Origin: an uncultured Poribacteria bacterium
Lineage (GTDB): Bacteria > Poribacteria > WGA-4E > WGA-3G
Direction: 5' to 3'
NCBI GenBank assembly: GCA_951813565.1
Contig: OX638351.1
Span: 1,440,001 to 1,504,000, forward strand
Length of the DNA stretch: 64,000 nt
The translations under genes were made by a program, and so were the position numbers. The notes beneath the pieces were generated by a model. The model searched no databases and was not told where the DNA came from. It saw only the letters and a program-made list of their open reading frames with translations. Positions 6,408-25,520 of the stretch are shown here, one piece after another (position 1 is the first letter of the stretch; each line of letters opens with the position of its first letter).

Positions 6408-7913
6408 ATGCTAACACTCATCCGCCGAGAACTTCTTGACAACCTAATGACATTCCGATTTGCTGCAGCAGTCTTCATTATGCTGTTGCTTGTAGTTGCC
6501 AACACCTTTGTGCTTATCAATGATTATGAGAGTCGATTAGCCGGCCATAATACCTCTGTCAATATGCATAAGCGACAACTGCAAGAGACTAAAACCTATT
6601 CGGCAGGTGAAGTTCGCGTTGACCGTCCGCCAAACCCATTGAGCATTTTTAATGTAGGGTTTGATAAACAACTTGGAAACGAAGCTCGTATAACCCACCA
6701 ATTTGTGCCGTCGCTGTGGGATGCTGGCATGCACGGCTCCTCTAATCCGTTTATGGATATGTTTGCTTCAATGGATATTATTTTTATTTTTCAGGTGATC
6801 CTTAGCTTGTTGGCATTGATATTTGCTTACGATGCACTTGCGGGAGAATACGAAAATGGAACTTTGCGCTTAGTCTTGACACATCCTGTTAGGCGAGGTA
6901 AAATATTGGTTGCTAAATACGTTAGTGCAATGCTCTGCCTCATTGTGCCGTTGTTGATAAGTTTGCTCCTCTCGCTTATTTTACTCACGACATCCACATC
7001 CATCGCTCTAAACACCGATGATTTTCTTCGCATCGGTGGAATCATCTTAACGTCCATTGTTTATCTTTCCGTATTCTATCTGATGGGACTGCTGATTTCT
7101 GCGGTAACCCGTAGGACGAGTACAGCATTGATGTTGTCTATGTTTGTTTGGGGATTTTTAGTATTGGTTTATCCAAATATGATTCTTGCCGTGATACCTC
7201 AACACGAGGCACCGCAGGAACGCAAGACATCCGCTTACAGTAAAATTGAACAGATGTGGAAGGAATTCGACAAAGAACGCAAGCACTACCTTGCTACTGA
7301 CGATTTTCCAGGGGAAGATTGGGGTTATGAACTAAGGGGTTGGGGAACACGTTCCAATTTTATTTTATTGGGTAATCCTCACACACTTTTCTATAAATGT
7401 CGTAGTATGATGAATTTTCAAGGGTTTGGTGAGGAAGATGAACCCAAGATTCCTCACGCACGGAAACATTTCCGCTACCTCGGTCCGAGAATTGTTGATA
7501 CCGCAGATAAGACATGGCTCGTCCGAAAGCCTGCACTTGATGACATCTTTATTCGACCTGCCAATAAAGAGAGAATCTGGTTGAAACTCTCACCAGTGGG
7601 ACTATACGATGCCGCAACACAAGCGTGGGCAGGCACTGACGTACACGGTGTTAGAGATTTTTTCGACGCTGCAAGACAATATAGAAAGCAGGTAATTGAC
7701 TATTTCTACGATACAGATGTGTTTGGATCGCGACAATGGTTCTCATCGGACAAAGGGGCTGCTGATTGGAGTGATTTACCACAATTTACTTATCAAAGGG
7801 TTGATAGCAACACAAATGCAAAGCGCGCACTGCCAGATGTATGCTTACTGCTGATGATGAATGTCGTTCTGTTTATCATTATATTTCTGATCTTCGTCAA
7901 AAGTGAGGTGTAG
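6408..7913 (+). CDS. ABC-2 type transporter permease, type A paralog
   Basis: DRPPNPLSIF, SNPF, YDALAGEYENGTLRLV, TM helices. Confidence 0.9.
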   Translation: MLTLIRRELLDNLMTFRFAAAVFIMLLLVVANTFVLINDYESRLAGHNTSVNMHKRQLQETKTYSAGEVRVDRPPNPLSIFNVGFDKQLGNEARITHQFVPSLWDAGMHGSSNPFMDMFASMDIIFIFQVILSLLALIFAYDALAGEYENGTLRLVLTHPVRRGKILVAKYVSAMLCLIVPLLISLLLSLILLTTSTSIALNTDDFLRIGGIILTSIVYLSVFYLMGLLISAVTRRTSTALMLSMFVWGFLVLVYPNMILAVIPQHEAPQERKTSAYSKIEQMWKEFDKERKHYLATDDFPGEDWGYELRGWGTRSNFILLGNPHTLFYKCRSMMNFQGFGEEDEPKIPHARKHFRYLGPRIVDTADKTWLVRKPALDDIFIRPANKERIWLKLSPVGLYDAATQAWAGTDVHGVRDFFDAARQYRKQVIDYFYDTDVFGSRQWFSSDKGAADWSDLPQFTYQRVDSNTNAKRALPDVCLLLMMNVVLFIIIFLIFVKSEV

Positions 7914-15955: not shown

Positions 15956-17416
15956 CTACTGCAAATCGCTTTTTAAAAAAGAAACCAGTGCGATAATAAA
16001 GAATAGCAGGTTAAACAGCACCAGCAACATGACTTGGGTTAACACGCTCCGATAAGAGATCTGCTCCTTAAAAACTGGCACAGCATCTGGATCCACCGGT
16101 TTCTGAGATAAGCCTTCTTTTACAGGATAGATATGTAGGCTTTTGGGATCACCCTGATCTTCTGTTTTGATGAAGTCTATGAACGTTTGACGATACCGAC
16201 GCGCCTGTTTAACAAAATTCATATAACTAACAATACCTGTATTTGCAAACCCTTCCATCGCATATTGGAAAGTCGCTATCGGAGAGATTTGGGTAAGGTC
16301 GCGAGCAAGCTGGACCTGCCTAAACTGCTGATCAATATGTCCATCATTAAAACGGGTTTTTGTCTCCATTTCTTTGGTGAGGTAAGTTGCCCAAAGAAGC
16401 GTTGCTTCGGGATTCTCAACAGAAGCTGCCTTGCTTAACTTAGAGGGTATATCTCCTGACCTACCAAAAGGATGGTATTCATCTCCAAGTTGCCTTAATT
16501 GTGCTTCTCGCTGCATGGACACCTCGTCAACCGAGGGAATAGGATTTATGTTGCCGACAAAAGTGCCAAGTAGACTCGGAAAAACAAACGCTAAGCAGAC
16601 CCAGGTGAGTAAAAGCCATACCAAACTTGTTATTGGATTTGAAACACGACTTGAGAAAAAGAGACCAAGGAAGATAAAAATAGAGATGTGTAACGCAAAC
16701 AATCCTATCATTCCCAAAATACATAGCCAATCCCTCGACTCAAACGGAATATTTTTTGAAATAAGGATAACCAGCAAGTTCATCAAGATGCCAATCATAA
16801 GCGGTACCATAAGTGTCACAAATGCACCGAGGTATTTCCCCAACAACACCTGCCCGCGCGATACTGTATTGGACATCATCAAACTTAGTGTCCCGCTCGC
16901 TCGTTCCCCAGCAATAGCATCAAAAGTGAATAAAATCGCAAAAAAACTCATCAGGATACCGATGAAAACCCAGTCGATTTTGATCCGTCGCATCCCAGTA
17001 CCGCCTGTATTTTGCAAAGGGTACTCTAATGTCCACGGGGCTTTCCACGCATAATCTTCAAATTCCTCATAACCGCTTCGACTGGCTGTTCCGGTATTCT
17101 GCATTTTGACAGAACGCGGAATTAATTTATCTGTCCCATCGGCACAAAATGTCAACCCGGTAGGGTGTCTTAGAATCTCACCAGGTCCTATCAGTGCTAA
17201 TTCCGCCAAACCCTTACCCGCTTGTTCTTTGATATAATCTCTATTTTGTTGTACATGGCGGTTGTAAGTATTGATTTGTGTTGTATAACCATCGCCGCCA
17301 AGACTATATATCAGTGCATTCGCCATAAACAGCACAGGCAGAAGGATGATCATCAAGGAAAATCGGAGCGTCGTGAGATTGTGGTATATCTCTTTCCTCG
17401 CAATGTGCCAAACCAT
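15956..17416 (-). CDS. ABC-2 type transporter permease, type B paralog
   Basis: MVWHIARKE, IDWVFI, FDAIAGERASGTLSL. Confidence 0.9.
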   Translation of the reverse strand: MVWHIARKEIYHNLTTLRFSLMIILLPVLFMANALIYSLGGDGYTTQINTYNRHVQQNRDYIKEQAGKGLAELALIGPGEILRHPTGLTFCADGTDKLIPRSVKMQNTGTASRSGYEEFEDYAWKAPWTLEYPLQNTGGTGMRRIKIDWVFIGILMSFFAILFTFDAIAGERASGTLSLMMSNTVSRGQVLLGKYLGAFVTLMVPLMIGILMNLLVILISKNIPFESRDWLCILGMIGLFALHISIFIFLGLFFSSRVSNPITSLVWLLLTWVCLAFVFPSLLGTFVGNINPIPSVDEVSMQREAQLRQLGDEYHPFGRSGDIPSKLSKAASVENPEATLLWATYLTKEMETKTRFNDGHIDQQFRQVQLARDLTQISPIATFQYAMEGFANTGIVSYMNFVKQARRYRQTFIDFIKTEDQGDPKSLHIYPVKEGLSQKPVDPDAVPVFKEQISYRSVLTQVMLLVLFNLLFFIIALVSFLKSDLQ

Positions 17417-17434
17417 CTGCTTCAACTCCTCTTT

Positions 17435-18958
17435 TCAACTCAAATCATATCGTAGAAAGGATACATAAGCGACCATGAATAAGACGATATTCCATGCCAA
17501 TAGAATCAAAATATCCATCGACGCACGGGACAAGCTTTCGGAAAGGGAAAGCCGTTGATGTTGGAAAACGGGCAGATCGGTTAACTCAGCATCTCCCTTG
17601 TCATTAGAAAACCACGCGCGCGAAGAAAATGCCTTTTTATCTTTTAAATACTCAACAATCTCACGCTTATAGTTTCTTGAACCCGCAATAAAATCGTTAT
17701 AACGCTGTCGGTCTGTGCCTGCTATTGTGCCAACAGCGAAGTGATATGTGTCTGCAAAGGAGATACGGGAGAGAGCATCAGCAAACTTAGAATTCTTCTC
17801 TCGTGCCTCAGCGGGTTCTTTGAGAATTTCTTCCGCTCTATCCGCATATTCAACCCGAAGTTGCTCTTGATAGCCTAAAATTTCTTGGAAGATAGAAGTA
17901 TTGGCTTGGGCGACATTTGTGACACTATAACTCTCTGTTAAGAAATAACCTCCGAACATAGAACCACTGCCAACTCCTCTTGATGATGCCCCCGGTTCCC
18001 AAATAATTGACTTTTGCAGATCTTCGTAGCCTCTCTGTCTGCGATAGGCATCCCGATCTTTTTTAAATTGTTCCCATACATCAGCAGCAGGCTGGATCAA
18101 CGACATTTCAGATTTCACTGGATGCGGCGGAAATTTTTCCACTCCAAATGCCACGACATTTGAATGAACACTTGTGAGGATCACCCAAATAAACATGGAA
18201 AGGATCAGCGTTGTTGCGGCTTGTTTTGTCCAAACAGACAAGGCAAGTCCTAAAAGATACCACGTTGACACGTACAGCAGCGAAACACCGAATATCGTCA
18301 TGATGTGTAATATGTCGTTTCCATCAAAGACGATAACTGGTGAAGAAAACGCGAGCAACAGTGCCACAATTAAACTCACCAAAACAATTGGAAACAGAGA
18401 CAGCATCCCACCGAGATATTTCCCAAACACTATCGTATCTCTCGGTATCGCATTAGATAACACAAGTTTCAGTGTGCCATCTTCTCTTTCACCCGAAATC
18501 GTGTTGTAGGCAAACAGAATCGCTAACGCGCTCAGCACGATCTTGAAGATGAAAACCACATCCACGGTTAGGAACATCGCAAGGAATGGATTATCTGAAC
18601 CCCGTTTTTGCGTTGGTGCTTCCCAAATAGGGAAGTTGAATTCAAAGATAGGCTTTCCCAACTCAACGGTGACCGTATTGGCACCAGCGTTCTCCGCACC
18701 CACGTTAAAGATGCTAAACGGATTCGGCTTGCGGTGTGCCTTCGGCTTGATTTTGGAATAGAGTTCCCATTCCTGTGCTTCCGTCTCTGCCTCTCGGACA
18801 GCAGTGTTATATCCCGCCAAACGTTTTTCGTAGTCGTCTACCTGAACAAATACTGCGACAGCAGTTGAAAGCAGACACACAATAAGCCCAATCATGAATC
18901 GGGATGTTAAGATATTTGAGACGAATTCCCGTTGGATAATCAGCCAAAGTGTGGACAT
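17435..18958 (-). CDS. ABC-2 type transporter permease, type A paralog
   Basis: RKPNPFSIFNVG, DNPFL, YNTISGEREDGTLKLV. Confidence 0.9.
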   Translation of the reverse strand: MSTLWLIIQREFVSNILTSRFMIGLIVCLLSTAVAVFVQVDDYEKRLAGYNTAVREAETEAQEWELYSKIKPKAHRKPNPFSIFNVGAENAGANTVTVELGKPIFEFNFPIWEAPTQKRGSDNPFLAMFLTVDVVFIFKIVLSALAILFAYNTISGEREDGTLKLVLSNAIPRDTIVFGKYLGGMLSLFPIVLVSLIVALLLAFSSPVIVFDGNDILHIMTIFGVSLLYVSTWYLLGLALSVWTKQAATTLILSMFIWVILTSVHSNVVAFGVEKFPPHPVKSEMSLIQPAADVWEQFKKDRDAYRRQRGYEDLQKSIIWEPGASSRGVGSGSMFGGYFLTESYSVTNVAQANTSIFQEILGYQEQLRVEYADRAEEILKEPAEAREKNSKFADALSRISFADTYHFAVGTIAGTDRQRYNDFIAGSRNYKREIVEYLKDKKAFSSRAWFSNDKGDAELTDLPVFQHQRLSLSESLSRASMDILILLAWNIVLFMVAYVSFLRYDLS

Positions 18959-19182
18959 TATTTCCTTTTAATTAAAGACGCAATCTTGGTATTGAAACGT
19001 GCATAATCTTTATTTTGATGATATTTCAGATTACATGCTTTCTTTTAAAATCTTAATTTATGGTAGATTTTAGAATTAATTGGACAGCACTTAACGGTAG
19101 GAGGGAATTCCGATTCCCAACTATCAAAGCGTTTAGTCGCTATTCGGAGATCGCTCCTACAGTAAACGCACCTATTTTGCAT

Positions 19183-20082
19183 CTAACGGTCCTGAATCGT
19201 TGAGGATGGCGGTGCTATTTGGACATCTCCCGGAACAGGAGTTAAAACATCTGGAATTGGCGTATCGCTCAGTCGCAAGACCAAATCATGGCGGCGTTTC
19301 TCCGCAGAGATTTTGACCGTTTTGGATGTCGTCATGCCGCCGTTGTACTCCACAGATACTGTGGCAAATATGGGCAAATTCACGTATTTCACAAAGTACC
19401 CATCCGAATCTGTATGCGTTGGTGTAATACTTCCATTTCCGCTATTAACTCCATCAAAACTCCGATAGTTAATGTTAAACTTCACTGCAGCTTTGGCTAA
19501 TGGTGTTCCGTCCGCCAAAAGGACTTTGCCACGGATACGCATACGAGGAAGCACTTTTATTGTTATGTCTTTGATGTCTAATCCTGACTTGATGTATAAC
19601 GGAATACCACCCATAGATGACAATTTCTTTGATTCAACAAACCTTGCCCCAAAAATCGGACGAATTGGGTGATGTGATATTTTCAACTTTGGGGCATCAA
19701 TAGGCAAAAAACTTAAGCCCGCGACATCAATGGAGTGAATCTCGGTGTCTGCTTCAGAGGCACCTATTTCAGGAGATACCACGAATTGCGCGTGTCCGGG
19801 GAGAATATCGCTGATTTGAAAGTGTCCAGCAGCATCGGTTTTCAATTGATGTATCGGTAGTGGTGCCTGCCACATCTCACCATCAATAATATCAATTGGG
19901 TGAATGGCTAACCTGAACCCAGGAATCGGGTCGCCGTCCATATCAACAATTTGACCAGAGAGAGTACTTGTATTCTTCTGTGCAATATTGTGTGACGAAG
20001 CCACAAAAAGTGCCAGAATACCAACGAGAACAAGAATACTTGCGGGAATTGCAGAGCGTTGTTTGAAACTTGTAAAATTCAT
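19183..20082 (-). CDS. Exported protein with two carboxypeptidase-regulatory-like (CarboxypepD_reg) beta domains
   Basis: AAGGAG RBS; N-terminal TM/signal; SGQIVDMDGDPIPG..KTDAAGHF and RGKVLLADGTPLAKA..HTDSDGYF. Confidence 0.7.
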   Translation of the reverse strand: MNFTSFKQRSAIPASILVLVGILALFVASSHNIAQKNTSTLSGQIVDMDGDPIPGFRLAIHPIDIIDGEMWQAPLPIHQLKTDAAGHFQISDILPGHAQFVVSPEIGASEADTEIHSIDVAGLSFLPIDAPKLKISHHPIRPIFGARFVESKKLSSMGGIPLYIKSGLDIKDITIKVLPRMRIRGKVLLADGTPLAKAAVKFNINYRSFDGVNSGNGSITPTHTDSDGYFVKYVNLPIFATVSVEYNGGMTTSKTVKISAEKRRHDLVLRLSDTPIPDVLTPVPGDVQIAPPSSTIQDR

Positions 20083-20262
20083 AATTACTTCTCCTTTTAC
20101 GTGCATTTTATGGTAGATTTGAATTTATTTGGACAGTATCGCTCTGTGAATCAACGCTGAATGCACATAAGGCATTCAGCGTTGATTCACAGGAAATGTG
20201 TCCAATTATTTCCATATTTCACCATTAAATGGATTTTAACACTAAAATTGGCTTATGACGTT

Positions 20263-20291
20263 AAGTCGCGTTTTAAAGGAAAAAGGTTGCA
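20263..20291 (-). promoter_or_regulatory. Putative ECF sigma promoter upstream of 20082 gene and permease pair
   Basis: Minus strand TGCAACC-N16-CGACTT. Confidence 0.7.
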
Positions 20292-20340
20292 TAAAATGAA
20301 TTTTTGGGAAAATTTTATACTCGGTAGGTAAGGAGACAGA

Positions 20341-23322
20341 TTATTGGTTGTTTCCCAATATTCCTGACCAGATCGCACGTCGCGCATCCGTGCTGTCAGG
20401 TTTTTGGGTAATGGTAATATTAATACTCGCTGCTTCAAGAGGCGGTTTTCCGGGCATGCCGCCTAATGTAGTTGGTAGGGTAATTTTTTCACCTTTTCGC
20501 TCAAGGGTTAACTCTACGACATCACCTGATTTCCAGTCTTTTGCCGATCTTCTGACGTCTTCAAATGTCTTCACGGGTGTGTCGTTGATCGCAATAAGTT
20601 TGTCACCGTCTTGATACTTGGGCGATCGAAAAATAATCAGACTCCCCTCCTTCGTATTCCTGAGTAAACGAATGGACAACATCTCATTGAGAATATACCT
20701 AAGGTTCGGTAGTTTTTCACCAAATTCTATCTGTGCATCTACACCCGCGTTTTTAAGGTATTCTTCTAAAGGTAATCGCTCTGTGCCTGTTACATATTTA
20801 TTGAAAAATGATTCAAAATCTTTACCTGCAATTTGGCTGACGATCCTGATGACATCATTAATAGCGAACACGTTATCGGTAAGCCCAAATTCCTTATACA
20901 TCTGCTTCATCACATCGTCTAAGCTACTCCGATTTCGCGTTAGCGCGCGAATCTCTAAATCTAAAGCCATCGCAACGAGACTCCCACCGTCATAAACAAG
21001 TTCTCGGTTGGCAAATTTGTTTTTGCCTGCCTCTCGGATAGAACGTTTCCCTTGTTCTGATAAATATGATTCCGACGAACGTTTAAGATTTATAAGAAAA
21101 TCGTTTTCAGAAATAAGTCCAAGGCGAGTACAAACAACATTTGAATAATACGAAGTGAACCCCTCGGTAAACCAATATTCCTGTTTACCAGCCTCAGTGA
21201 ACCAATTTTCCGACTTGGCAAAATAAATGGCTTTTCCATTCCACATATAGCAAACCACGCCTGCCACTAAATTAGCCCAAAAACTTCTATTCGTTTCGTC
21301 TAATTCGCCTCCGATCAGAGCGGTGATGCTACGTCCTGATGCACCACCGCTGCGATATCCTTCCGCACCATAAGGGTTAGCGACAAACAGCATCCTGTCT
21401 TTCGGGGTACCCCCAAATACTTCTGTATACGCTTTCAGGATTGCTTCAATAGTACGCTGTATTTTATCCATAGATGCTTTAAAGCGTCCACCAATGGCAA
21501 GCACTATCTCCGCATCTCCAGATTTTACTATTCGTTCACAATGTTCACCAAGCACAAGATACGCATTCATCAAGTCGTCCTGATCTTTACAAACAAAACG
21601 ATGGTCTTCAGGTTCAATCCGCTCCCAAGCCGTTGAAACATGCCAATTATCAGGGACGTTAACTTGCAATTCAATATCTTTCACCTTACCCACGATAAAT
21701 AGGGCATATCCAGTCCAAAAGATGCAATCTTCTTGGGTGTACGGTGCTTCATCCCTGCCTGTAGGCCAATCCCGTTCATCATGGTTTAACAACGCTTTGT
21801 AGTACAACTTCACAGGTAAGTCATCCCGCGTTTCAACAACCCATTGTGTTTTGTCAATCTCTTCAACAGGTAACGTTTCTCCATTTACATCAGTAACTGT
21901 CAAGTCGCGAAGATAACGAGCATATCCATCATACAACCATTCAGTATCAAAGCGGCTCATGGATAACATCAGATGTTTTTTGCCGCTTTTAGCACCACTG
22001 CCAATTTTCGGTGTTAGGATACACTTGACTTCTGCTATGCGCGGTTCATCAGCATCTATTGTGACTTCATATCTTGCCGATGCAAGTTCCATCTGGTTTT
22101 CAAGATTCACTGGTTTACTGAAATTCCTGATGACGTGCCACTTCTCAAAAACTGCTTCGTCACGATAGCTATTTTGCCATCTGTATGTCCACTGCGTCCC
22201 GACTTGCACAGGGAGGTATTCTCCACCCTCAAGCGGAACTTCGTATTTAAACAATTCAGCTTCAGTTACGACACCGTTGGCGTGTTCATATCGCATCTTA
22301 ACAAGTCCAACACCCTTAGCGAACCATAAATAACGGGTGCCGTTAACAAGTGCATTCCGCAGTTCAGCATTTGTGCCTTCTACATCAGCATTTGTAAAAA
22401 CGGTTTTATGCTTCAGACATTTTTCAAATACCGCCGCCGACACTTCTACCCTTTCATAACCTTCCAAAGTCGTTTTTGCTTTTGATTTCCAAGCACCTTT
22501 TTGCTCCCAACTTTTTCCGATATTCATAGGAAACCTAAAAAGGTTAATCTTACCGTGGCTGACATAATGTAACAACATATACATTGGTGATGGATCACCA
22601 TCATCATGACCTCTTGTGCCAATACCGGAAGATGTGAAAACCTTATCGGTTCGGTTTAGACGGAAACCACCTTCTGCTAAATGCTCGCCACTTTCCGTTA
22701 CCGCAGTCGCTTGAATGCTAATGTATCGTGGTTCGCCTCTCAATAAATTAGGACTCAAATTTTCGCGAATCATTGACTCCTCCTTCTCCAGTCTCTTCCG
22801 TGCACGGTATAACCGACTCTTTACCGTGTTCAGCGATATGTCTAAACGCGCACTCACCTCTTCACAGGTCAAACCTTTGAAATAGTGTAGGACAATTACG
22901 GAACGTTCAGACTTTGGTAGTTTTTGGAGGAGATTTTCCACGACTTCGCGTAACCTGCTTGTTGATGCTTGTGTCTGCTCTTCTTCAAGATAGCGGACGT
23001 AGAACAGCCTTTCCAGTTCTGATTTTGGCATCGCATCTATAGATGGCATTGCAAGTGGCTTTTTTCGTATCCACTCTACGCACCGACGTTTTGCTATTAC
23101 GCGAAGCCACCCTAAAAAACGTTTGGGGTCTCGTAACGTTGGCAGGGAGTTAAAAGCATGGATAAAGGTGTCCTGCGTAACTTCTTGCGCTGCATGGAAG
23201 TCGCCGATTTCTTGCCATGCAAGAGAGTGAACCCACTTTTGATGCTTTTGCACGAGCGCAGTGAAAGCGTACTCATCTCCTGACAAGATGCGCTGAATCA
23301 GACCAACATCGTCATTTTTCAT
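20341..23322 (-). CDS. ECF sigma factor fused to beta-rich domain, M61 (glycyl aminopeptidase)-like domain lacking HEXXH, and PDZ
   Basis: Sigma regions 2/4 in aa ~1-185; M61-like WFTEGFTSYY and YDGGSLVAMALDLEIR..SLDDVMK; PDZ GDKLIAINDTPV; no TM helix evident. Confidence 0.8.
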   Translation of the reverse strand: MKNDDVGLIQRILSGDEYAFTALVQKHQKWVHSLAWQEIGDFHAAQEVTQDTFIHAFNSLPTLRDPKRFLGWLRVIAKRRCVEWIRKKPLAMPSIDAMPKSELERLFYVRYLEEEQTQASTSRLREVVENLLQKLPKSERSVIVLHYFKGLTCEEVSARLDISLNTVKSRLYRARKRLEKEESMIRENLSPNLLRGEPRYISIQATAVTESGEHLAEGGFRLNRTDKVFTSSGIGTRGHDDGDPSPMYMLLHYVSHGKINLFRFPMNIGKSWEQKGAWKSKAKTTLEGYERVEVSAAVFEKCLKHKTVFTNADVEGTNAELRNALVNGTRYLWFAKGVGLVKMRYEHANGVVTEAELFKYEVPLEGGEYLPVQVGTQWTYRWQNSYRDEAVFEKWHVIRNFSKPVNLENQMELASARYEVTIDADEPRIAEVKCILTPKIGSGAKSGKKHLMLSMSRFDTEWLYDGYARYLRDLTVTDVNGETLPVEEIDKTQWVVETRDDLPVKLYYKALLNHDERDWPTGRDEAPYTQEDCIFWTGYALFIVGKVKDIELQVNVPDNWHVSTAWERIEPEDHRFVCKDQDDLMNAYLVLGEHCERIVKSGDAEIVLAIGGRFKASMDKIQRTIEAILKAYTEVFGGTPKDRMLFVANPYGAEGYRSGGASGRSITALIGGELDETNRSFWANLVAGVVCYMWNGKAIYFAKSENWFTEAGKQEYWFTEGFTSYYSNVVCTRLGLISENDFLINLKRSSESYLSEQGKRSIREAGKNKFANRELVYDGGSLVAMALDLEIRALTRNRSSLDDVMKQMYKEFGLTDNVFAINDVIRIVSQIAGKDFESFFNKYVTGTERLPLEEYLKNAGVDAQIEFGEKLPNLRYILNEMLSIRLLRNTKEGSLIIFRSPKYQDGDKLIAINDTPVKTFEDVRRSAKDWKSGDVVELTLERKGEKITLPTTLGGMPGKPPLEAASINITITQKPDSTDARRAIWSGILGNNQ

Positions 23323-23356: not shown

Positions 23357-23386
23357 TAGTCGTGTTTTAAGGGAGTAAAGGTTGCA
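23357..23386 (-). promoter_or_regulatory. Putative autoregulatory ECF promoter of the sigma-M61-PDZ gene
   Basis: Minus strand TGCAACC-N17-CGACTA, ~35 nt upstream of the ATG. Confidence 0.7.
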
Positions 23387-23611
23387 TAAAATGCAATTAC
23401 AAGACAAAATTTTGGGAAATAAATAGTTTTAGACCTGCAAAAAGGTCAGCATTTACTTAAACTGGATACAAACTGCTGTATGCTGCAGAAATCAGCGAAA
23501 CCAAGCAATTCCGAAATATTTAGTAATAAATGTGGACAAAATATCGTTATATCTGGTACAATACGTTAAATATAACGATTTGATTTCTTGATTGAGAAAG
23601 GAGGTGCAATT

Positions 23612-24880
23612 ATGGGATTGGCTGAAGTAGACACTAACCATGCTGTATTGCGCGCGACCGATGTTCCACATCCTTACCTACATACCATATTTGAAGTCAG
23701 TGATAAATATCTAAGACGCGTTTTCAATGAACAACAGTTGAATGATTTTAAAACTGATTGCCTCCATAACATTCAAGGAGATAGAGATTCGACCATAGAA
23801 CAGTTTATCAAAGCATACTACGATTTAGTGAAGAAAGAATATCAAAAACAATATGCTAATGCCGATCCATCTCTGAATCAAGATATTTTTTTTGAACCTC
23901 ACAGACCGAAAATGTTGTGGGGTAACTGCCTGGACTTTTTGCGGCGCATGGACAGCGAAAGCGTTCAGTTGATGATCACTTCGCCACCATATTACAACGC
24001 AAGAGATTATTCCCAGTGGGAAACTCTGGATGACTATTTGGATGAAATGTCCAGTATTATCAAGGAATGCTATCGGGTCCTGGACAATCATCGCCCTTTC
24101 GTTTTCAATGTCGGAGATATATTTGACAACGACAACAGACATACCAAATCGACTTGGGGAAAACGCCGAATACCTTTGGGTGCATATTTCACTATGATAT
24201 TTGAAGAACACGGTTTTCAATTTGTGGATGACTTCATCTGGGACAAAGGGGAAGTTCAGACTCAGCGACATAAGAATGGAAACAGACCTTACCCATTGTA
24301 TCAATATCCCGTCAACTGTTATGAGCATATTTTTATTTTCTACAAGCATCGGTTGGATGAAACACTTTATCCCTGTCCAGTATGTGGATGTCTGAAAATC
24401 AATGGGAATGCATACTCTGGAGTAGGTATCAAATCTTGGGAATGCAAGAATTTAGACTGTTTCAAGCGATCAGCAGGCAATCGCGGCAAACGTTTTTCTG
24501 CCCGTACGCAGTTGATGACGGGTTTGCAACGATCCCATAACTTTGTTGATGAAGATTTGCTGCGGCAATGGCGTCGCGATATCGTCAAATTAGCACCAGT
24601 AATCAAGATAAACAGCAAGGGTCAAAACACGCTTGGACATACAGCCCCCTTCCCACGCGAAATTCCCGAATACGCAGTTCGGGTGTTCAGTGGTATAGAG
24701 GAATCTGTCCTCGATCCTTTTGCAGGTTCATTCACGACCACAATAGAATCATTGAGGTTAGGACGAAATAGTATTGGAATAGAACTGAATAGAACATTGT
24801 TTAGAGATGCCGTCCTGAATCGGATCCCAGGTGGTCTCTTTACTACGGAACCGAAAGAGGTGGAAAGTGAATGGATCTGA
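23612..24880 (+). CDS. Site-specific amino (N4-C/N6-A) DNA methyltransferase, beta class, with inserted Cys cluster
   Basis: AAGGAGGT RBS; TSPPY precedes VLDPFAGS; HTAPFP; insert CPVCGC..WECKNLDC. Confidence 0.9.
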   Translation: MGLAEVDTNHAVLRATDVPHPYLHTIFEVSDKYLRRVFNEQQLNDFKTDCLHNIQGDRDSTIEQFIKAYYDLVKKEYQKQYANADPSLNQDIFFEPHRPKMLWGNCLDFLRRMDSESVQLMITSPPYYNARDYSQWETLDDYLDEMSSIIKECYRVLDNHRPFVFNVGDIFDNDNRHTKSTWGKRRIPLGAYFTMIFEEHGFQFVDDFIWDKGEVQTQRHKNGNRPYPLYQYPVNCYEHIFIFYKHRLDETLYPCPVCGCLKINGNAYSGVGIKSWECKNLDCFKRSAGNRGKRFSARTQLMTGLQRSHNFVDEDLLRQWRRDIVKLAPVIKINSKGQNTLGHTAPFPREIPEYAVRVFSGIEESVLDPFAGSFTTTIESLRLGRNSIGIELNRTLFRDAVLNRIPGGLFTTEPKEVESEWI

Positions 24881-25520
24881 TACCGATAAACGTGTAATCG
24901 GTCTTTATGGTGAGATGCGATTGGCAATGGAACTACATAAACGAGGATGGCAAGTTTATAGTGCATATATTGATGAGAAATACGATTTTGTCATTCTGAA
25001 AAGTTACTGTGAAAACTGCAAAACCTTCAAAGATGCATGGACTCGTGAAGAAACTTATATAGATAAGAAAGGCAATGAGAAGAAAGGTAAAACAGTAACT
25101 CAGCTATGCAATACATGTCACCAAGACAGTCTGAAGATGCTCGTTCGATTTATACAAGTAAAGACATCAGAGGGAATTTCTGGAAAGAAAACAAAATCAG
25201 GAGAAAAAATAAAAACGTATAGTTTCCATGCGAAAATCCGTTATCACCTGGCAGATTCCAGAATATTTTACGCATGGATACAAGTTTGGGACGAAGACAA
25301 CGTCAACTACTACATTTTCAAAACGGAAGATGTTGCACTTTTTGATAATTTGCAGATAGCATCCTATCAAATAACCGACAATCAGAAAACGTCACTGAGA
25401 ATGAACAAAGAGGGAAAAGTACTAAATGAGGGGAAGATATATGATTACAGTGCGTTTGAAAAATTTCACAATAATTTCGATTGTTTGGAAAAGATAATTC
25501 CTGGTGATGATTGGAAGTAA
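24867..25520 (+). CDS. Putative PD-(D/E)XK restriction endonuclease with zinc ribbon
   Basis: Overlaps the MTase end; GEMRLAMELHKRGW, YDFV, FIQVKT; CENC..CNTC. Confidence 0.65.
   Translation: MNGSDTDKRVIGLYGEMRLAMELHKRGWQVYSAYIDEKYDFVILKSYCENCKTFKDAWTREETYIDKKGNEKKGKTVTQLCNTCHQDSLKMLVRFIQVKTSEGISGKKTKSGEKIKTYSFHAKIRYHLADSRIFYAWIQVWDEDNVNYYIFKTEDVALFDNLQIASYQITDNQKTSLRMNKEGKVLNEGKIYDYSAFEKFHNNFDCLEKIIPGDDWK

Follow-up and report, generated by a model that had tools for sequence, protein, structure and literature searches.

A conserved pseudo-M61 peptidase joined to a soluble ECF sigma factor in Poribacteria, and its possible role as a built-in sensor

What might a sigma factor gain from carrying, on one polypeptide, the body of a peptidase that lacks its zinc ligands? 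The question is raised by a 993-aa open reading frame (ORF) in a 64,000-nucleotide stretch of DNA from an uncultured Poribacteria bacterium (assembly GCA_951813565.1, contig OX638351.1, positions 1,440,001 to 1,504,000; the window hereafter), in which an extracytoplasmic function (ECF) sigma factor is followed by a DUF3108-like domain, an M61-type peptidase body and a PDZ-like domain (Table 1). Our results support the presence of a conserved cytoplasmic pseudo-peptidase joined to an ECF sigma. The reading we prefer takes this body, without its zinc ligands, for a built-in sensor, from which the soluble sigma would be released upon binding of the sister enzymes' substrate; our confidence in it falls slightly short of even.

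Pfam finds sigma-70 regions 2 and 4 joined by a short linker, with region 3 absent, which is the layout of ECF (group 4) sigma factors, and the best PDB sigma matches of this part are RpoE, AlgU-like and SigW. Farther along, Pfam matches M61 at residues 693-761, and the AlphaFold2 model of the whole protein (mean pLDDT 76.9, pTM 0.60) has its best structural matches among M61 peptidases (4FGM, Z 30.5, rmsd 6.8 over 518 residues; 8J9C, Z 27.0; 7XYO, Z 22.3), with M1 peptidases next. The M61_N, catalytic and PDZ domains, with a gluzincin fold, together make up the M61 family layout; the structure alignment to 4FGM runs past the PDZ-like region, whose Pfam match is sub-threshold, to residue 991. 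A preliminary description of the gene, drawn up from the letters alone, had named the sigma, M61 and PDZ parts, all recovered here, and had missed the ~210-aa beta domain between sigma and M61 (residues 196-405), which models separately at pLDDT 92. It had also seen no membrane segment, and in this it was right: the maximal 19-residue Kyte-Doolittle mean of the protein is 0.98, compared with 1.9-2.5 in membrane-anchored paralogues, and no transmembrane helix follows region 4 in 100 sigma-bearing family members, in which the hydropathy maximum over residues 170-420 is at most 1.02.

At the position of HEYFH in 4FGM the aligned protein reads GVVCY (the surrounding DNA, 21235-21270, is LVAGVVCYMWNG), which confirms the earlier observation that HExxH is missing before WN; an HExxH elsewhere in the protein, or a non-gluzincin fold, is ruled out by the PDB alignment and the structure matches. 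The third zinc ligand position is occupied in this protein by E720 of WFTEG. This Glu had been presented as a kept motif, which holds for the present copy and fails as a family trait, only 10 of the 49 dead copies described below retaining it (80% have Ala). The accompanying WFTE duplication is likewise real, with 20/30 nt identical, and is no general feature, being found in 9/121 proteins; it sits in a low-confidence loop of the model. The YxxG motif, whose Tyr is the transition-state Tyr, was correctly described as kept. Adenine-directed diversification, of the kind carried out by diversity-generating retroelements, was suggested by the codons of the degenerate motif; we set it aside, since the changes affect C positions too and are lineage-fixed.

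The Glu of GAMEN/GxLEH binds the substrate amine, a role taken from M1 peptidases. Its column in 4FGM (GGLEHR) holds Ser in the dead fusions and in the adjacent intact paralogues alike, and for this reason the parent enzyme, judged from sequence, was probably not a canonical aminopeptidase. The best 150 of the 50%-identity representatives of 7,948 matches include 144 with HExxH, none of which carries the pattern G-x-[LMI]-E-[HNYF]; the six without HExxH are the dead-fusion family, its fragments and a record of another lineage, P0244.

Is the loss peculiar to this copy? In a set of 121 proteins, made up of the query and its 120 best homologues out of 349 (named Candidatus Poribacteria in the source records), HExxH is present in eight, seven without a sigma domain and one (P0106) with it, and absent from 113, of which 109 bear a sigma domain and four do not; 109/110 sigma-bearing proteins thus lack the motif. 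Of the 176 genomes of the phylum that were searched, 81 had a match, 80 of them in the window's family, and loci were examined from 42/48 sister-genus genomes with a close match, from 8/9 close relatives in the window's own genus and from some distant paralogues. When 102 copies were aligned over at least 400 residues, fragments being excluded, the sigma-fused copies were dead in 49/52 cases and the sigma-less copies intact in 50/50. The 49 dead copies keep the first His in eight cases and the catalytic Glu and second His in none, while the cleft-lining residues W694, W717, G721, Y725 and Y777 are kept in 100%.

These bodies are under purifying selection. Pairwise Nei-Gojobori dN/dS of the catalytic domain, taken over non-independent pairs with dS 0.05-1.0, is 0.124 for dead copies of the window's genus (8 sequences, 28 pairs) and 0.209 for those of the sister genus (41 sequences, 468 pairs), compared with 0.205 for the adjacent intact paralogues (19 sequences, 150 pairs). 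The expectation that homologous sigma fusions consistently lack HExxH under purifying selection is therefore borne out, and close homologues that keep the motif, the mark of a copy simply decaying, were not what we found. Functionless decay of the peptidase part after duplication would be in keeping with the different rates at which the first His and the third ligand were lost across lineages, and with one genome in 10 of the genus (G006, L132:1509-4612), whose fusion gene is split over three frames by frameshifts or sequencing errors. However, dN/dS values of 0.12-0.21 that equal those of intact copies, together with full-length fusion frames persisting in two genera at dS up to ~0.7, refute this explanation in the main, and we give it very little credence. 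An assembly or frameshift artefact is ruled out by the full frames in two genera and by a DNA contig of a second study, which spans the gene in one piece and has no difference at the motif among the differences listed (65 weaker ones lie outside that list).

In the full tree the dead copies fall into a single clade whose sister group is the adjacent intact copies (support 0.974); a core tree without the motif columns agrees (0.949). The clade is absent from some partition and subset trees, one subset tree setting the window's branch apart, and a single origin of the catalytic loss is likely on this evidence, if not firm. One soluble intact fusion, L124, has no adjacent paralogue. Trees of the sigma, the middle domain and M61_N place it within the dead group; we regard it as a possible relic or mosaic.

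In 31/41 sister-genus loci the dead fusion has an intact paralogue as a downstream neighbour (30 by script and L112 by inspection; among these are one fragment and two copies truncated at contig ends). Its commonest form is ~800 aa long, has no signal peptide and starts at the position of Met184 of the fusion; of the 24 pairs examined, 22 show an overlap of its start with the fusion stop, of 1, 4 or 17 nt. Farther downstream in these clusters stand more copies, with hydrophobic N-termini, and exported DUF3108-like, LamG and Ig-like proteins; an ABC-2 permease pair follows in 32/52 loci and stand-alone exported DUF3108-like proteins occur in 22/52. Sigma-less exported proteins whose domains resemble those of the P0125-type hydrolase-like fusions described below (exported form L118:5238-8219) also occur inside sister-genus pseudo-M61 clusters.

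Met184 itself is preceded by an in-frame Shine-Dalgarno-like sequence that is conserved: the Glu181 codon is GAG in 50/50 sequences against a background of 37%, which places it at the top of 49 conserved Glu columns, the base before it is G in 48/50, Met184 is ATG in 49/50, and the anti-Shine-Dalgarno duplex averages -10.3 kcal/mol, compared with -2.9 to +1.6 at 11 other conserved Met codons. This suggests that a sigma-less form may also be made from Met184. The signal is shared with many paralogues, membrane-anchored ones included, and may thus be left over from the fusion, or else yield a free extension.

Such a free form would be one element of an alternative in which the dead body acts by protein contact, as an oligomer with the active paralogue or with the Met184 form, the partner ratio setting sigma activity in the manner of a tethered plus a free anti-sigma. 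The conserved internal start and the translational coupling of the paralogue would then have a use, the zinc-site replacements could be diverse, and the charged residues that mark out the sigma-bearing class (E487, E567, E593, E774, E853), which are 94-100% kept, might serve as contacts; ECF42 and ECF57 are activated by protein interaction according to the sections of PMC8999054 drawn on here (this and the other papers cited below are used in part). The recurrence of the signal in anchored paralogues, the lack of an adjacent partner enzyme in the window's genus and the fact that contact alone supplies no input signal nevertheless make this explanation rather unlikely.

A second alternative places the sensing in the DUF3108-like domain, which would read a signal, possibly lipid or lipopeptide as in LolA-like folds, with the dead peptidase as a structural passenger. 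The domain adjoins region 4, holds many class-specific residues, scores DUF3108-like in paralogues, has DUF3108-like Atlas feature matches (<0.9) and LolA-family proteins as its top Foldseek matches (E 3e-4, TM ~0.4), recurs behind other Poribacteria sigmas with a different enzyme after it, and exists in the stand-alone exported versions mentioned above. Its fold matches are weak, however, and shared with generic beta-barrels; the peptidase body is equally constrained, and the L110 lineage (also P0105) has no DUF3108-like domain yet keeps the dead peptidase. We consider this alternative improbable.

No less improbable, to our mind, is release of the sigma by proteolysis, in which the extension would be a soluble anti-sigma cut off in the flexible linker (residues 184-197) and the PDZ or dead body would do no more than bring in a protease or set its timing. 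The linker has pLDDT <50 in the model, IutY-type hybrids are known to free their sigma by proteolysis (PMC8999054), and of the 28 close sigma paralogues that the window's genome contains most are membrane-anchored (19 by hydropathy), with beta-propeller domains. The fusion, however, has no membrane helix for regulated intramembrane proteolysis, and the conserved LTENIM-type helix, found by pattern after Met184 in 19/27 paralogues, where it precedes the membrane segment, occurs in 0/50 of the soluble clade; the conserved cleft, too, would be left unexplained. The helix may resemble helix 4 of class I anti-sigma domains, which binds region 2 of the sigma (PMC7406223 deals with helix 4), a likeness that PDB and Pfam searches did not recover.

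What would the released sigma transcribe? A conserved bipartite -35/-10 motif, CATTTTATGCAACC-N-AAAA-NN-CGAC, stands 62-114 nt upstream of the sigma start in nearly all loci, as is usual for the own gene of an ECF sigma, and the parts of the PMC7826278 supplement drawn on give GCAACC or TGCAAC as -35 and CGTC or CGACA as -10 motifs of other ECF groups. When the 5.4-Mb genome is scanned with a matrix built on 45 sites, exactly two copies emerge, one before the fusion gene and one before the next gene; additional copies precede downstream genes in relatives' loci. The pattern is present in 55/58 family genomes with the gene and 1/54 without it (reversed control, 0). Among 24 close sigma paralogues with a motif the -10 element is CGTC in 17, and CGAC belongs to the fusion gene only; a CGTC-type site lies at ~18977-19003, ahead of the ABC-2 permease pair. 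We infer that the fusion's sigma reads the CGAC block. The specificity resides only in the full block, a loose promoter regular expression not being enriched (18 hits, 12-16 expected), and a scan for sigma70 promoters and terminators gave nothing exceeding shuffles. In one relative (L127, ~6605-6680, minus strand) the second block is tandemly duplicated, 41 nt apart.

Putting these elements together, we propose the following scenario. An exported M61-like peptidase would have been fused to a sigma, its membrane segment absent or lost, and the peptidase part, beginning at the internal Met184 start, then tandemly duplicated; the upstream copy would have kept sigma and lost catalysis, the downstream one kept catalysis without sigma. 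Without ligand, the extension would keep regions 2 and 4 off RNA polymerase; a cytoplasmic peptide-like ligand settling in the uncleaving cleft would free them. That the dead domain binds peptide and gates sigma is our inference. The freed sigma would transcribe its own gene, a positive feedback, along with genes for ABC-2 exporters, for exported proteins and for the active peptidases, whose action would do away with the signal. The output in the window's genus would be an exported protein or the permeases, because the adjacent peptidase is gone there. More tentatively, and with some doubt, we suggest that a receptor has here been made from the enzyme that it controls, with every stage kept in one family (exported, anchored intact, soluble intact, tandem sensor/enzyme) along with an orthogonal CGAC promoter and an internal start that would also yield the sensor minus its sigma, and that Poribacteria build sensors from their own hydrolases.

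Several observations weigh against this preferred scenario. Chief among them, for a simple model of induction of the sigma's own peptidase, is the missing intact copy: none adjoins the fusion in the window or in any of seven fetched own-genus relatives, and in G012, G014, G017 and G107 (own genus, 93-95% complete) only the dead copy matched the query. One distant paralogue, which reads HEVFH and starts like a lipoprotein, is present in the window's genome. The zinc-site replacements are diverse, 31 different 5-mers among the 121 proteins, and therefore give no hint of one conserved new pocket; residues separating dead from intact copies are as frequent in the sigma-proximal DUF3108-like domain as in the cleft; and the four sigma-less proteins lacking HExxH, known from database entries, may be exceptions to the association of loss with sigma. 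Linkage of promoter and gene explains much of their co-occurrence, which is therefore not independent evidence. Membrane-anchored sigma-M61 fusions (P0122, P0123, P0154) keep HExxH, as do BlaR1/M56 transducers with a C-terminal M61-like module (P0256, P0260, P0263), so that sensing, if real, need not require catalytic loss.

The P0244 cluster of seven near-identical records is a separate case: its membrane-anchored sigma (34% identity, unrelated lineage) carries Ig-like, M61 and PDZ domains with RELFH, an independent loss of the first zinc His. Arg for this His is also the commonest replacement in the window's family. Since both P0244-type sigmas and BlaR1/M56 proteins carry it, the M61 module has been recruited repeatedly to signalling proteins. 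Other fusions met in the searches are P0333 and P0357, in which an M61-like module is joined to a beta-lactamase-fold domain; a large family of membrane-anchored sigmas (P0125-P0208, e.g. P0125) with DUF3108-like, Ig-like and alpha/beta-hydrolase-like parts, in which the GFSASG motif looks intact by eye; a sigma joined to a tubulin/FtsZ GTPase domain (L081:1-1221); and a 1435-aa ORF joining ECF sigma, FtsZ and DnaE domains (L082:1-4308; G000 C1:3818096-3822403, plus strand).

Around the fusion gene, the CarboxypepD_reg-domain protein behind the second block is probably exported. Palindromic multi-copy repeats (20143-20200 and 19086-19160) flank its gene, one of them falling between the block and the start of the gene. 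Upstream and divergent, two genes, one for a DNA methylase and one for a probable restriction endonuclease, occupy 23588-25520 (plus strand), a neighbour that varies among relatives. After the permeases, eight own-genus loci have a 231-aa ORF without a Pfam match (L129:2418-3110, minus strand), which by eye alone may be RAMP/Cas7-like.

Table 1. Features of the fusion gene and its surroundings in the window
Feature	Position	Strand	Remark
Promoter-like block 1 (TGCAACC-N17-CGAC)	23359..23390	-	~64 nt before sigma start codon
ORF, 993 aa: ECF sigma, DUF3108-like domain, pseudo-M61 peptidase, PDZ	20341..23322	-	
Sigma-70 region 2 (residues 23-88)	23059..23256	-	Pfam, above cut-off
Sigma-70 region 4 (residues 126-178)	22789..22947	-	Pfam, above cut-off
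In-frame Shine-Dalgarno-like GGAGGAG and ATG (Met184)	22771..22785	-	predicted start of sigma-less 810-aa form
DUF3108-like beta-sheet domain (residues 196-405)	22108..22737	-	LolA-like fold match weak
M61 N-terminal beta domain (residues 412-586; Pfam M61_N 418-586)	21565..22089	-	Pfam and structure alignment
GGASGR (residues 659-664)	21331..21348	-	column of 4FGM GGLEHR, by alignment
Degenerate zinc motif GVVCY (residues 688-692)	21247..21261	-	HExxH position, aligned with HEYFH of PDB 4FGM
30-nt tandem duplication (WFTE twice)	21163..21222	-	ends at E720, third-ligand position
Y777 of YDGG	20992..20994	-	kept in 49/49 dead copies
PDZ-like domain (Pfam PDZ_2, residues 905-952)	20467..20610	-	E 3e-4, under curated cut-off
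Promoter-like block 2 (TGCAACC-N16-CGAC)	20265..20295	-	
CarboxypepD_reg-domain protein, hydrophobic N-terminus	19183..20106	-	gene behind promoter-like block 2
ABC-2 permease pair (17435-18958, 15956-17425)	15956..18958	-	recurrent downstream partner

If the sensor reading is true, a sigma factor gained a new input by copying, then disabling, the catalytic body of a gene that it regulates, much as in GAL1/GAL3 but in a bacterium and on a single polypeptide. Substrate bound without cleavage would then induce the very enzymes and exporters by which the signal is cleared. Through its substrate the intact paralogue offers a direct route to the ligand, and the two-site promoter a ready reporter; a soluble sigma that reads a private promoter would also lend itself to use as a compact scaffold for cytoplasmic biosensors. 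The family adds to a picture in which Poribacteria expand one sigma clade, here put at 29 close paralogues, with many different sensory bodies.

Lastly, we need to place the fusion among known systems. In the literature searched, outside which lie subscription papers including the M61 structure papers, no sigma-M61 fusion and no Poribacteria sigma fusions are described; 'M61' and 'Poribacteria' occur 0 times in the part of the PMC7826278 supplement searched, and 'peptidase' and 'Poribacteria' 0 times in the portion of its main text consulted. In its available portion PMC3909097 reports WD40 proteins to be abundant in Poribacteria and has 'sigma' 0 times. Soluble C-terminal ECF extensions are known as SnoaL-like (ECF41/56/294/295), TPR (ECF42), Cys-rich (ECF238) and WD40 (ECF57) domains (PMC8999054, PMC7826278, in the sections used). 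Like these, the present protein has a core of regions 2 and 4, an in-frame extension, no adjoining anti-sigma gene and a conserved promoter-like block upstream. The extensions described in those sections are ~20-400 aa long, whereas this one has ~800 aa and comprises a whole enzyme body without catalytic residues; in place of SnoaL, TPR, WD40 or Cys-rich domains it has DUF3108-like, M61 and PDZ parts. In its proposed working it resembles the ECF sigmas that carry regulatory extensions, but it matches none of their extension types.

With the M61 aminopeptidases 4FGM, 8J9C and 7XYO the protein shares the three-part fold, the domain order and W-x-x-EG and Y-x-x-G in register; it differs in having neither HExxH nor a signal peptide, in being joined to sigma and a DUF3108-like domain, and in the absence of the GxLEH Glu, which even the intact paralogues lack. 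By its sequence it is an M61 homologue, not an active M61 member. IutY-type hybrids (ECF243; PMC8999054, in part) likewise combine sigma and regulator on one polypeptide, a topology shared by most paralogues in the window's genome, but the fusion has no membrane helix or periplasmic part. The BlaR1 sensor, as treated in the part of PMC5957439 consulted, is also homologous to the enzyme class it induces and retains its ligand rather than turning it over; BlaR1 is transmembrane, binds covalently and signals to a repressor, whereas the fusion is soluble and would act directly on transcription. A parallel in history is yeast GAL1/GAL3, where duplication split an ancestral enzyme-regulator, leaving one gene for the enzyme and another for the regulator (PMC3048525, in part). 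Resolution of enzyme and regulator by duplication, experimentally shown for GAL, would apply here to unrelated proteins, in which the regulator is the transcription factor itself and the two copies stand in tandem and are coupled.

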